Assembly: GCA_051313645.2 (NCBI GenBank)
Contig: JBNRSN020000017.1
Location: 80,476,001-80,540,000 of the forward strand
DNA: 64,000 nucleotides
Source: Centroscyllium fabricii
Lineage: Eukaryota
Direction: 5' to 3'
Each line of letters opens with the position of its first letter. Position 1 is the first letter of the stretch. Positions 4,066 to 58,075 of this stretch are shown here, piece after piece. Below the pieces are notes generated by a model. That model was not told the DNA's origin and did not search any database. It worked only from the letters and a program-made list of their open reading frames with translations. The position numbers and the translations under genes are program-made.

Positions 4066-5132
4066 TACATTGTTTTTATTATCTGGAGTTGCCCAGCAAA
4101 CAGGAGAATTTCACACAGGATGGATTAGATTTGAATGCAGGTCCCAGAGGTGAAAGGTCAGCTTCCAACCTACTGTCCGAATGAGTCCTTCAATTTTGTA
4201 TTTCTCAACTGCTGTTAGTAACAAATCTTGAATCCAAATCCTGGAACTCTTCACTTTACCTCGTTAATACTGTGAATAATTTTAATAAAAGCATGGGGGT
4301 GCTTAGAGCATAATAATGACATGAGGTTGATGGTTGGTTCAGTCACCCTGCCATTTTCCATGTGTTTTGTGTCTCCAAGTAATGAATTTATGATGTCATG
4401 TGTAATGCATTGTTTAAAAAATAAAAGTACAAGTATTTGAGCATTTTGTGGAGTCAGAAAGGAATCATGCCTGTATGTACTTAAAATGATTTGCTCCTGC
4501 TGTTAATTTTTATTGAGAAATGATGGAATGCATACGTTACCATGACTGAAGAAGACCACCTAACAACTCGTGTGCCAAAAGGAATTTGGATTGTGCAAAG
4601 CAGGTCTTATTCATGACTTGATCTAGATATTTGTGAAATTTTCTATTCTTTGTAAGATTTTTTTTTAATGTTTTATATAAATATATTTCTAAATACAAAT
4701 AAAAATGCAATAAAAGTTTTTTAATGTGAAGAATATGTACTTAAGACCTGTCATTATGTATTGCATTATCACTGATCCTAGTAATATACCTACAGTACTT
4801 TTGCAGTAGTTAGTATTGCCCAGTTCTTTCTATAAGGTAATAACTGGACAGAAATATGTTAATGACTGGACAGAAATGTAACATTCAAGAATAAGATAAT
4901 TGATGAATGGAAATAACTTGCTGTAAATTGGAGACACTCTTATCCTCACCCCTTCCCAAATAATGCAGCTCAACTTTAGCAAGCAAAGAAGCCAGCATTA
5001 GTTTTTTTTGTAGAATGTCCAACAGTGTTTGGCAAGAAGCCTACTGATCCGACATTAACAGGTACAGTGGTAGCTGTGGAAATTTGCTGTGTTGCAATTA
5101 TTTCTAAAAGGTTTTTGTTTTCTCTGCTTTAG

Positions 5133-5165
5133 GGGTTCAGCTAAGCGTCTGTGGAAAAGAGCAAA
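5133..5165 (+). CDS. MAP2K4: MAP2K4 alternative 33-nt cassette microexon, (G)VQLSVCGKEQ(I)
   Basis: tctctgctttAG|GG GTT CAG CTA AGC GTC TGT GGA AAA GAG CAA A|GTAAGC; 33 nt, phase 1-1, which fits exon 2; peptide aligns to the mammalian MAP2K4 isoform insert (G)FQINFCEKAQ(S) as recalled. Confidence 0.85.
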
Positions 5166-6020
5166 GTAAGCTCCTATTTCATGGTACTGTATTCTGAAAC
5201 TTGCTTCTGACTCTGATAACTGGGTAGTGGGAACCTGTCTGCTGCCATTCCAACTAACAGTCTGTGGAACTTTGGTCTAGCAAATACCATTTCTTTTCTG
5301 TGACGCAAATACTCTAGCCCTCTTCTACACTGTGCCGACATACATAGAGATTGGCAGAATTTCAGTGCAAAGTGCAAGTTCAGTCAGTATTTTCCTGACA
5401 TTGGCTTTATGTGAAATTGTGTACCAGTAACCATTGGAACTTTGTCCTTTTGTTGGATTTCTTGGCAGATGGAGATTATTAGCATTTACTTATTTAATTC
5501 TGAAATGTGTAATTTTCAGTGTTTCAGGGCTGAAACAAAGAAACATTAGTTTTGTAACAGTAGAACCATGGAATTATTCCACACAAGGTCTGTTGTTACA
5601 AGAGTTCTGTGTTTTTCAAAAGCATTAAAGGCCTGATCAGCCAACAATGGAATTACCAATGTCCCAGGGTAATTAGTTTGTTTCGCTTTGGAATGCCCAC
5701 AAATAACTGCTTGATCTGTGTGCAATGTACAAGACAATTCAACTCCAGCAAGTGTTTACAACATCTGAGTTTTGTTCAGATGAAATTCAACCTGAAACCC
5801 CCAGTTAATTTTTCACACCAGTGATCAGACTGCAATATAAATAAGGTGGTTCTGCCACCACCATCTCCTCAAGATGGTGTTTGGCTACTGCTGCTGAGAT
5901 GGCAACAGATGCAAACAACTGAGGTACAGCTACTTCTCTTAATGAAGCTGTGGGCTAGTCTGAGCACTCCGACCAGTAGTGGAATATTTGCAGCAGCCAA
6001 TGGGGAAAGCTGAAATGAAT

Positions 6021-6342
6021 CATAGAATAGAATCATAGAATCTCTACAGTGCAGATAGAGGCCATTTCGGCCCATCGAGCCTGCACCGACACATATCCCA
6101 CCCTATCCCCGTAACCCCACATATTTAATCCCCCTAACACTAAGGGTCAATTTATCCTTGCCAATCAACCTAACCCGCACATCTTTGGACTGTGGGCGGA
6201 AACCGGAGCACCCGGAGGAAACCCACGCAGACACGGGGAGAATGCGCAAACTCCACACAGATAGTCACCCGAGGCCGGATTTGAACCTGGGTCTCTAGCG
6301 CTGTGAGGCAACAGTGCTAACCACTATGCCACCGTGCCACCC
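6021..6342 (-). mobile_element. V-domain tRNA-derived SINE (HE1-like), type 1 head, short tail A, full length
   Basis: A/B boxes, V-domain GTGGAGTTTGC..TTCTCCCCGTGTCTGCGTGGGTTTCCTCCGGGTGCTCCGGTTTCC, (ATTCTATG)n tail; TSD AATGAAT at 6014-6020 and 6343-6349. Confidence 0.9.
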
Positions 6343-14575: not shown

Positions 14576-15893
14576 ATGACCTGGACAAAAGCTTTAATTC
14601 AGCCAAGAGAGAGTATTTATCAGGCAATCTTTATTAAGTCACTTTTTTTGTCCCAAGGACTCGAGTCTTGTTTGCTCCTCAGTGAGAGTAGTAATAGAAG
14701 ATTCTTTTGAGGAAACCTTCATTTGGCACAATCGCTCAAGATCAACAAGTAAATTAAATTGTAAGGTTCCAGTTAAAAGTTTTGACTAATTTATTTCTGT
14801 AGGTCTTTCATGTGCAGTTGAAATTAACCAGGTGTAATGCCTATGTGTAATTGTTGATTGACTTATCCTGATTCCCATTATTGCTGGTTGAGTGGAGAGG
14901 AAAGTCCTTTTTGTTTTTGTCTTGATTTACACTACTTCATTCGGGGTTCAAACACCAGCATGTCTTTTTTGTGAGGAAGTTAACCCTATAGTATCTGAAT
15001 TTCCACAGTTTCTCCTACAAAAAATGAGTGAGATAACAAGAGAACTTGCCTCCCTTGATCTTCGGAGTTTGTTGCTTCAGGCATTTTAAGCCTTCTAATT
15101 TCTAAAATCTTTACTTCTGTTGTTTTTGTGTGTATCTTTTAATCAGTGAACTGGAATTTGAATGGGAGAAACCATATTTGAGCAGTAACGAGTAGTTTTG
15201 CTGCATTTTATGCAAATTGTCACATTAAGTTTTAACAGACTTTCTGCTTGCATTAGAAGAAACCGTTTGCTTAGGTTTAGACACTTGTGAATTCTCAGGA
15301 CTGCATATGAGGTGATGTCTATAGAGACTGCCAAAATAGGGAATGCGAAAGGCAATTTACATGATTGCAGAAGGATGTACACTGTTGAAAGAACTCTCTC
15401 CTCAGTGGAGTTTGATGATTTGAGCGATACCCTAGGATGACGCATACTTTTTAAAATTGACTTTGAAAGTGGAGCTTTTTAAAAATACAAAGTGCCATCT
15501 CTCTGTGTGCAGTGTTAGTTTAAACTGGCTTCTGTTACTTGGCTTGAGTTTGAAAAGAAAATTACACAAATCTAATTTTTTGCATTAAGTTGTTTTGATT
15601 GCATATTTGGTGAAAATTGGATCATAATTTTTCCTCAAATCTTTGGTACTGTTAGCTACATTTTTGTAGTCCTCTTGGAAGGGTTTTGAAAGCAATTTGA
15701 ATAAAGTATGCAATGTTGTGTATTAACTGAGAACATTTAATACTGTAACTGGACTAATGCATTGTCAAAGATTGTTAAACTACAAGCTTTATTCCAGCAA
15801 ATCTGAACACTGTCTTGGGCATACCAAGCAGATATAAGATGCTTCCCCTCAGAGCAGGTAAATGACTGGTAGAGTACAGCTGTTGTACTGATA

Positions 15894-22122: not shown

Positions 22123-23546
22123 TACACTGTCACAAATATTTGCTATTTGGTGCTGTGCTGCTAGTTCAGTGACAAACCCAGTATCTCTTGTTTGATAGAT
22201 TTGAAATGGTGAAATAAAATGTCAGTGTAATGCATGGCTTGTTTTTCAAATGGCAAAATAAACATGTTCCTTAAAGTGGGAACGGCCATCTGTCTGTTTT
22301 CTTTTCTGTGTGATTTTGTGGATATGTATAAACGTGTAGTGAAAATGTAACTCCTCTCTGCATCTTGTGGTGGTGGAAAGTCTTCATATCAATTCATTTG
22401 AAACCAGCCTCATTTCCCCAGACCAAATAAAATCTTGCCGTGGGCCACATTGTCCTTGGCAACTAACAGCCATGGTTTTTTGCTCCAAGGAACTGAGCCA
22501 CATACAATATCAAAGGTCCAGATTCATTTCCTAATCTCTGCATAGTTAACTAAGCTCAGCTGGGGTAGTGGAATTAATGCTGCAATCAGCCTGAGTGCCC
22601 CTTGGCCAGGGAGGAGAACATTCAGCTGGAGTTCCCATCCCTGATCGTTATCTGGTGAACTGTATGGGGTGGGAGGTTTGGTGTTGGATGACAAAAGAAT
22701 TGTGCTTAGCTACTTCCCAGCTCTTATCTGCTCTGGAAAAACTGTTTGCTAAATTATAATTGATAATTGTCTTACTGTGCAATGTACAGGATTATATTGT
22801 TGTGCAATCCCAGAACCTTGCACAGAATGTGTAATGAGACATTTGTTGCTGAAGTCTCACAGAAAAGGCAGCAAAAGAGTGAAGCTGTATGTCCCCAAAA
22901 ATTAAAACAAACTGACAAGATTTAAGAGGCAGTCCTCACTTTCTTCCGATTGAGAGATGTACAACGTCACAAAGTCTAAAGAAAAATACTTGAATTCATT
23001 ACAGAATTGTAGATATGTTTGGTTTTCCTTCCTATAAAGCCATGTGCCTTCATCGCAAGCAATCCTTCATTGAATTATGTAACTAATGGAAATTTGAGTC
23101 TGATGTAAACTGGGGGTGGTGGGTATTGGAGGTTAGATCTTTTGATTGCCTTGCATCCCTTTGCTAACTTGAAATATTTGTGCTTTGTGGAAAAAGCTGT
23201 CACAGGCTGACAATATTCTGTAAGTAAAAGACCATATAGCCTTGTTAAAATGGAACTTAAAAGTGGTTGGATTTGCCTAGTTACAGTATGAATGTATTTC
23301 ATTTATTCACTTTCTGCTTGCGACTGTTAGTTTTCCTTACAGGTTTAAAAACCTGTAAATGGACTTTTAAATATTCTGGCTTTTCAAGATGTGGGGGATA
23401 AGTTTGAGGTCTCCACATGTTTGAGTGCTCTACTTATTATTAATTACCCAAGTTGTTCAGCAAAAACACAGCATCTAGGACCTAGTGGATGGTATGATTT
23501 AACGTATTATCTTTCCATTCCCTTATTTCTCACTTTTTTTGAACAG

Positions 23547-23649
23547 TTAAACGCAAAGCATTGAAGTTGAATTTTGCCAACCCAGCCTTCAAGACAACAG
23601 CACGGCTTACATTAAATCCAACGGGAGTTCACTTTCAGAACCCACACAT
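23547..23649 (+). CDS. MAP2K4: MAP2K4 coding exon (human exon 2 equivalent; MAPK docking D-domain)
   Basis: ttttgaacAG|TT AAA CGC...CAC AT|GTAAGT; 103 nt; KRKALKLNFANPAFKTTARLTLNPTGVHFQNPH. Confidence 0.97.
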
Positions 23650-31263: not shown

Positions 31264-31362
31264 GTCCAGGCCCACCCAAAAACAGGGCCCAGACCTTGGA
31301 TCTTTGGAACTTTCAGCTCCCGTGGATAAAGACTTCATATCATTGGAAATGAAGCGAACAAG
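31264..31362 (+). CDS. Candidate in-frame 99-nt cassette exon of MAP2K4 (unverified)
   Basis: gatattttctgcAG|G TCC AGG...ACA AG|GTTTGT; 99 nt, open in phase 2-2 as this intron requires; encodes (M)SRPTQKQGPDLGSLELSAPVDKDFISLEMKRT(R). Confidence 0.45.
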
Positions 31363-47449: not shown

Positions 47450-47624
47450 AGAAAGGCTGCGGACTCATAGCATTGAATCTTCAGGGAAATTGAAGATCTC
47501 GCCAGAACAGTTGTATGATTTCACTGCAGATGATCTAAAGGACCTTGGGGAAATAGGACGTGGAGCCTACGGTTCTGTGAACAAAATGATCCACAACCCG
47601 AGCGAGGTGGTTATGGCTGTGAAA
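47450..47624 (+). CDS. MAP2K4: MAP2K4 coding exon (exon 3 equivalent; Gly-rich loop and catalytic Lys)
   Basis: gttgcAG|A GAA AGG...GTG AAA|GTAAGC; 175 nt; ERLRTHSIESSGKLKISPEQLYDFTADDLKDLGEIGRGAYGSVNKMIHNPSEVVMAVK. Confidence 0.98.
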
Positions 47625-50938: not shown

Positions 50939-51058
50939 CGAATTCGATCAACAGTGGATGAGAAGGAACAGAAACAGCTTTTGATGGATCTAGATGTTGT
51001 AATGAGGAGTAGTGACTGTCCATATATTGTTCAGTTTTATGGAGCGCTCTTCAGAGAG
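50939..51058 (+). CDS. MAP2K4: MAP2K4 coding exon (exon 4 equivalent)
   Basis: tctttcAG|CGA ATT...AGA GAG|GTGAGA; 120 nt; RIRSTVDEKEQKQLLMDLDVVMRSSDCPYIVQFYGALFRE. Confidence 0.98.
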
Positions 51059-53950: not shown

Positions 53951-54070
53951 GGCGATTGTTGGATATGCATGGAGCTCATGTCTACCTCATTTGACAAATT
54001 CTACAAATATGTATATGGTGCATTAGATGATGTTATCCCAGAGGAGATCTTAGGCAAAATCACATTAGCT
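53951..54070 (+). CDS. MAP2K4: MAP2K4 coding exon (exon 5 equivalent)
   Basis: tttttattAG|GGC GAT...TTA GCT|GTAAGT; 120 nt; GDCWICMELMSTSFDKFYKYVYGALDDVIPEEILGKITLA. Confidence 0.98.
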
Positions 54071-56796: not shown

Positions 56797-56848
56797 ACTG
56801 TGAAAGCACTTAACTACCTAAAAGAAAACTTGAAAATAATTCACCGAG
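56797..56848 (+). CDS. MAP2K4: MAP2K4 coding exon (exon 6 equivalent; start of the HRD motif)
   Basis: ctcttccAG|ACT GTG...CAC CGA G|GTAAGA; 52 nt; TVKALNYLKENLKIIHR(D). Not in the ORF track. Confidence 0.97.
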
Positions 56849-57947: not shown

Positions 57948-58075
57948 ATATCAAGCCTTCCAATATTCTTATGGACAGGAATGGCAATATTAAACTCTGC
58001 GATTTTGGTATTAGTGGACAACTGGTAGACTCGATTGCCAAAACAAGGGATGCAGGATGTCGACCATACATGGCG
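57948..58075 (+). CDS. MAP2K4: MAP2K4 coding exon (exon 7 equivalent; DFG and SIAKT activation loop)
   Basis: gttgcAG|AT ATC AAG...ATG GCG|GTAAGG; 128 nt; (D)[42 protein letters not shown]. Confidence 0.98.

Follow-up and report, generated by a model that had tools for sequence, protein, structure and literature searches.

An analysed window of 64,000 nt from the shark Centroscyllium fabricii (contig JBNRSN020000017.1, positions 80,476,001 to 80,540,000, forward strand) carries a 33-nt, frame-preserving cassette exon of MAP2K4 that is probably common to cartilaginous and bony vertebrates. The cassette probably gains inclusion as neurons mature, and its control is likely of the NOVA type that has been called for the mouse exon. 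The 11 residues which the cassette adds directly before the docking motif would be expected to tune docking on JNK and p38. We assign a probability of about 0.62 to this reading as a whole, that is, an ancestral cassette, likely neuronal, likely NOVA-type, and likely tuning docking. Against it count the lack of a YCAY cluster in this species, the modest peptide identity between the lineages (2–5/10), the presence of MKK4delta in most mammalian tissues, and the predicted nature of the database models. The exon is a known one and its novelty is low: the mammalian exon has been published and the shark exon is annotated; the finding is real and largely ordinary. The modest added value lies in linking the exons of shark, teleosts, frog, and amniotes into what would be one ancestral switch, which adjoins the only docking motif serving both JNK and p38, and in redirecting the question of the regulator from SRRM4 to NOVA. 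The point of value is whether the regulator or the cis code changed between the lineages while the exon stayed.

Exon structure and gene context

The first-pass annotation had described an exon of 33 nt between AG and GTAAGC, in phase 1-1 and encoding VQLSVCGKEQ, with a TCTC-TGC motif just ahead of its acceptor (TGC at 5125–5127) and exon 2 about 18 kb downstream. All of this was confirmed in the window: the exon is framed by TAG and GTAAGC on the plus strand, the peptide corresponds to its ten whole codons (5135–5164), and exon 2 begins 18.4 kb downstream. The acceptor sequence reads ...TTTTCTCTGCTTTAG, with its last base at 5132. The following features were assigned, the regions around the cassette being given before the remaining exons of the gene:

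5104–5108 (+), candidate branch point CTAAA with the A at 5107 (position −26), proposed from the branch-point consensus
5110–5132 (+), polypyrimidine tract and TAG acceptor, with pyrimidines at 16/20 positions from −23 to −4
5121–5127 (+), TCTC-TGC element with UGC at −8 to −6, of SRRM3/4-like shape and chance-level frequency
5133–5165 (+), MAP2K4 cassette exon, 33 nt, phase 1-1 (sequence, shark and ray models, decoy rank)
5166–5171 (+), donor GTAAGC of the 33-nt exon
5197–5471 (+), downstream intron, more conserved than the distal flanks by comparison with a related species, with dispersed YCAY at 5245, 5287, and 5431 and ACTAAC at 5253
23547–23649 (+), MAP2K4 exon 2, 103 nt, beginning with the JNK/p38 docking motif KRKALKLNF
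31264–31362 (+), 99-nt in-frame exon, phase 2-2, between exons 2 and 3 (cartilaginous-fish models)
47450–47624 (+), MAP2K4 exon 3, 175 nt, start of the kinase domain
50939–51058 (+), MAP2K4 exon 4
53951–54070 (+), MAP2K4 exon 5
56797–56848 (+), MAP2K4 exon 6
57948–58075 (+), MAP2K4 exon 7

Exons 2 to 7 of MAP2K4 are therefore contained in the window on the plus strand, and exon 3 shares 97% identity with its nearest database relatives, which are cartilaginous-fish proteins. Exon 1 is located ~53.5 kb upstream of the window and ends with ...CAG G/GTAAGC in phase 1, so that intron 1 spans ~77 kb. The cassette is located in this intron, directly ahead of the docking-motif exon, and its inclusion converts ...MQ-V-KRK to ...MQ-GVQLSVCGKEQ-I-KRK. 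Exons 8–10 were found beyond the window end, near window offsets 99445, 99726, and 103300; the acceptor of exon 8 is AAG instead of CAG or TAG (contig positions 80575442–80575444).

Homology, age, and annotation of the cassette

The shark exon is supported as the likely counterpart of the mammalian 11-residue MAP2K4 insert, with which it agrees in position, length, and phase. Scored with a bony-vertebrate profile, it ranked 1st among 157 stop-free AG/33 nt/GT candidates of intron 1 (score 16.0, next 8.1, z ~5.0), and when splice sites were ignored its peptide ranked 3rd among the 46,842 stop-free 10-mers of this intron under the same profile. The profile was built from eight distinct bony-vertebrate peptides, none of them from cartilaginous fish; these were picked with a pattern written after both groups were known, so the decoy figures are somewhat favourable. 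Identity to the shark peptide was 4/10 for the amniote peptide, where the Q, C, K, and Q matches noted earlier hold, 5/10 for duck, and 2–3/10 for teleosts and frog. The mouse cassette (exon ID 15532-15565) likewise measures 33 nt, and the two exons after it measure 103 and 175 nt (PMC5989265), a layout that matches the shark gene.

Junction residues provide an independent check on homology, since in both lineages they agree with a phase 1-1 exon ending in A. In bony models, S follows the exon in 35/35 cases and the skip junction of exon 1 and exon 2 encodes G in 29/29; in cartilaginous models, the residue after the exon is I (17/17) and the skip junction encodes V (13/13), matching the prediction from the window bases. 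Ray variants carrying one extra residue were left out of these counts. Database models of mammals, birds, lizards, a snake, turtles, a crocodile, a frog, and teleosts contain counterparts at the same site. As the exon is common to holocephalans, sharks, rays, and bony vertebrates, the switch would date to the jawed-vertebrate ancestor or earlier, an origin that is well supported and that the first-pass annotation had also suggested. No jawless fish was among the ten proteins matched by the shark insert in a region search; this search requires exact shared words and thus cannot date the exon. Compared to human MAP2K4 isoform 2 and rodent Map2k4delta, 6/10 core residues differ in the shark exon, the junction residues are V/I versus G/S, and the shark gene has extra exons of 129 nt and 99 nt.

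An independent origin of the shark and bony exons at one site, in an intron that gains phase-1 cassettes readily, is very improbable. Several lineage-restricted inserts do occur within intron 1, the recurrent birth of neural exons was reported to be common (10.64898/2026.09.05.749416), and the identity is just 2–5/10. However, both exons have 33 nt with like first and last bases according to the junction residues, their order relative to the neighbouring cassettes is the same, and the distance from the decoys is z ~5. The Callorhinchus peptide, which has N in common with bony fish and C, G, K, and Q with duck, likewise argues for one ancestral exon.

The suggestion that the exon may be missed by annotation turned out to be wrong, because NCBI/UniRef models of cartilaginous fish, among them Heptranchias, Narcine, Hypanus/Hemitrygon, Mobula, and Callorhinchus, already include it. 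The models surveyed comprised the best 120 of 278 matches, the members of 10 clusters, and one later match, and all are predicted. Among the 43 cartilaginous-fish proteins obtained in this way, 8 are without the docking exon; of the other 35, which are usable, the cassette is present in 19 and skipped in 16. Short neural exons have been reported, as a class, to be deeply conserved from shark to mammal (10.64898/2026.09.05.749416; 10.1101/2024.09.17.613571), and MAP2K4 is not named in the main text of either report. A literature search found no paper on deep conservation of the MAP2K4 exon; subscription papers, VastDB, and bioRxiv supplements were beyond its reach and may hold it.

Regulation of the exon in mouse and shark

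We take MKK4delta, as reportedly described in Haeusgen 2014, to be exactly this cassette exon. According to a review, MKK4delta is present in most mammalian tissues at a level below that of the main form and promotes proliferation (PMC8699841), so the exon is not brain-only. In mouse, it is a core member of module M2+ of early-switch exons with rising inclusion (PMC5989265, Weyn-Vanhentenryck 2018). The regulator calls given there are 1 for Nova and 0 for Rbfox, Ptbp, and Mbnl, while SRRM4 was outside the modelled regulators. PSI values in mouse cortex were 0.11, 0.25, 0.51, 0.41, 0.55, 0.46, 0.50, 0.48, and 0.49 (PMC5989265), with the stage order from E14.5 to 21 months taken from the Methods of that paper; inclusion rises from ~11% to ~50% around birth in the developing cortex and then reaches a plateau. 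Furthermore, the primer list of that paper gives five AS-PCR pairs, Map2k4 among them, after those for cloning Nova1, and its text describes five exon targets as lower in Nova2 knockout cortex and as activated upon Nova1 expression in rat DRG neurons (PMC5989265). From the primer listing, the exon would be one of these five targets, reduced in the Nova2 knockout and raised by Nova1. The neural enrichment proposed in the first-pass annotation therefore stands for the mouse exon, in the form of a developmental rise in cortex (PMC5989265); for this fish, it is moderately probable by analogy.

In the window, no cluster of at least three close YCAY motifs was found near the exon or the downstream acceptor. 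YCAY was counted in 45-nt windows up to 400 nt from the exon in both directions and ahead of exon 2; none contained more than two copies, and the flank density equals the intron background of 16 per kb. A YCAY cluster has been defined as three close YCAY, and its absence in lower vertebrates went along with lost alternative splicing (Jelen 2007, PMC2014790). The shark exon resembles the NOVA-regulated M2+ early-switch exons in that its mouse ortholog belongs to the core of this module and has a Nova call (PMC5989265), but differs from them in that its flanks are without a YCAY cluster. Also, no GCATG as expected for RBFOX was present within 500 nt of the exon, and folding of RNA from 5060–5340 was no better than that of shuffled sequences (z −0.52).

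The repeat-poor flank of ~1.5 kb described earlier was confirmed and extends from 4200 to ~5980, with high-copy coverage from near 6027. The downstream flank is under constraint: in comparison to one related organism, 4/265 positions differed in 5207–5471 versus 65/1156 in the distal flanks, and this proximal conservation was obtained with Fisher p values of 0.004 and 0.02 in two runs of one study. Within the conserved flank, 88 nt downstream of the exon, ACTAAC occurs as a single copy (5253–5258), with ACTAAY at a rate of 0.38 per kb in the intron. By its consensus, this is presumably a QKI- or SF1-type site. Another motif, CTGTGGAA, was found at 5074, 5149, and 5262, with one copy ahead of the exon, one in it, and one beyond it over a span of 190 nt; the whole 77-kb intron contains six. 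Such triples occurred in 65 of 2308 control windows, mostly in tandem repeats, and the observation was made post hoc. Positions 5248–5269 are a 17/22 copy of the exon start and its best match in the intron; this partial copy and the motif triple, likewise considered post hoc, might reflect an unknown element or an old local duplication.

Thirteen sequencing runs were matched, none of which is on record as RNA. Four runs guessed to be RNA, from two related organisms, gave intronic contigs only over 4200–6150 and are uninformative on expression. The contigs shown for this stretch, which does not extend to exon 2, had no joint or loose end at the exon. One contig ending exactly at 5132 had a depth of 3 and was not counted as splice evidence.

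The first-pass annotation had interpreted the acceptor as carrying an SRRM3/4-type UGC signature, and this interpretation was not supported. UGC is located between the branch point and the AG with UCUC upstream (5121–5127), an arrangement of chance-level frequency: TGC was present at −20 to −4 in 26/99 pyrimidine-rich YAG decoys and at 589/2354 YAG sites of intron 1, and was equally near at 2 of the 8 constitutive MAP2K4 acceptors (exons 4 and 6). With 33 nt, the exon exceeds the range of 3–27 nt by which microexons are defined in SRRM4 work (PMC7935315). In 12 of the 19 supplement files of Head 2021 (PMC7935315), MAP2K4 is absent; these include the HEK293 SRRM4 list of 314 exons raised at a dPSI of at least 25, and the list for six other cell lines is not among them. 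As weaker negatives, Map2k4 is not in five of the six small supplement files of PMC4387716, in 18 supplement files of PMC9303857, whose listed sheets are mostly retina-specific, or in the single supplement file of PMC8797185; in PMC4930328, MAP2K4 appears at gene level only, in a GO table. Eight mammalian models (bat, buffalo, manatee) have an 11-residue 5′ extension directly before the exon, which ends with ...FTL-G; at the corresponding place, the shark intron has ...SAL-G. None of the codon combinations that could encode this extension contains TGC, so that, if it is contiguous with the exon, the mammalian acceptor is without UGC in its last 33 nt. UGC thus apparently would be absent from the mammalian acceptor. 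SRRM4 control of the exon is unsupported.

Conservation from sharks to mammals of a neural microexon activated by SRRM3/4 through UCUC-UGC at −8 is consequently unlikely. The exon is similar to SRRM3/4 (nSR100) microexons in being short and frame-preserving, with conserved flanks, a strong donor, and UCUC-UGC before the acceptor; this layout fits the bipartite UCU_CUC..UGC enhancer described for them together with a strong donor, and orthologous SRRM4 responses are conserved between shark and mammal as a class (10.1101/2024.09.17.613571). In addition, UGC, which is present in 79% of one SRRM3/4 microexon class and 74% of another, is not strictly required for an SRRM4 response (10.1101/2024.09.17.613571), and M2-module switches are generally impaired when nSR100 is lost (PMC5989265). 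It differs from these microexons by its length above the 27-nt limit, its absence from the SRRM4 target list examined, and the plateau of mouse inclusion near 50%, and the chance-level UGC, the mammalian extension that cannot encode TGC if contiguous, and the Nova call for the mouse exon (PMC5989265) also argue against it. A turnover of the regulator, in which an ancestral exon that is neural in both lineages depends on UGC and SRRM3/4 in cartilaginous fish and on YCAY and NOVA in mammals, has a small chance of being correct. It would account for UGC being present and a YCAY cluster being absent in the shark, and for UGC apparently being absent and a Nova call being present in mammals (PMC5989265), but each motif argument is weak by itself, and the shark position corresponding to the mouse YCAY cluster may lie outside the stretch covered. 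A wider form of this idea, with an equally small chance, joins the swapped master regulator to an N-terminal hotspot of lineage-specific phase-1 cassettes, several with cysteines, which would retune MKK4 docking on JNK versus p38. The shark exon might also be alternative and not neuron-specific, e.g. controlled by QKI via ACUAAC at +88 in muscle, heart, or glia, or broadly included. The missing YCAY cluster, the lone ACTAAY site of the conserved flank (5253; intron rate 0.38 per kb), and the broad tissue expression of MKK4delta (PMC8699841) are in line with this; however, a single motif carries little weight, inclusion in mouse increases as neurons mature (PMC5989265), and conserved short vertebrate cassettes are mostly neural (10.64898/2026.09.05.749416), which makes it quite improbable. 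For the regulator in this fish, our judgement gives NOVA a substantial chance that falls short of even, some other regulator or none about one chance in three, and SRRM3/4 about one in four. The preferred reading remains the ancestral, likely neuronal cassette with likely NOVA-type control.

Docking motif and neighbouring cassettes

The MKK4 docking pair is textbook knowledge. MKK4 is disordered over its N-terminal 86 residues, which contain the docking motif K40–F48; NMR signals of residues 38–50 change on JNK1 binding, and K40–K45 form a helix on JNK1 and are extended on p38alpha (PMC8391806). Inclusion of the cassette adds 11 residues, by which residue 39 is replaced with twelve residues and the docking motif is left intact. 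Since the replaced residue lies inside 38–50, an effect on docking may be expected, and a shift between JNK and p38 docking would be the likeliest one because the motif is intact but its upstream context is changed. From the position of the insert, we consider tuning of JNK/p38 docking slightly better than an even bet. No solved structure covers the insert, coverage by the MKK4 entries starting at query residue 116, and a structure search with exon 2 alone gave no match. A comparable case is the 16-aa N-terminal cassette of MKK7 gamma/beta, which is also optional, located in a disordered N-terminal region, and changes JNK binding (PMC8699841); in MKK7, a docking domain is gained or lost with the exon, whereas the MAP2K4 exon leaves the motif intact and alters the preceding residues.

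Further optional exons were found nearby. A 129-nt phase 1-1 cassette (43 aa) is located in intron 1 at contig positions 80466595–80466723, 9.4 kb upstream of the window; it hardly varies among the shark, ray, and chimaera models and was not found in the bony models examined. It occurs independently of the 33-nt exon (both in 13 models, the 129-nt exon alone in 7, the 33-nt exon alone in 6, and neither in 9). The 99-nt exon at 31264–31362 is present in 26 of the 35 cartilaginous-fish models as counted with the tally pattern. At its junction, frogs, birds, and reptiles have inserts of similar length and unlike sequence, and most mammalian and teleost models have none. Other lineages have in-frame inserts of their own in intron 1: teleosts an exon of 12 aa, lizards and turtles exons of 7 and 11 aa, bats extra pieces, and Narcine a piece of 17 aa. 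Cysteines occur near the basic docking motif in the inserts of teleosts and lizards, and their lipid modification can only be guessed. Stingray and devil-ray models gain one extra residue by using another acceptor, situated 3 nt ahead of exon 2; the window at 23541–23546 is without the upstream AG used by the ray models.

Two kinds of repeats were observed in the surroundings. A tandem array with a unit of ~23 nt extends over ~1.2 kb just downstream of the 129-nt exon (contig ~80467900–80469100), and copies of a very high-copy short interspersed repeat are located at 6027–6150 and 2864–2955, with a depth of tens of thousands.
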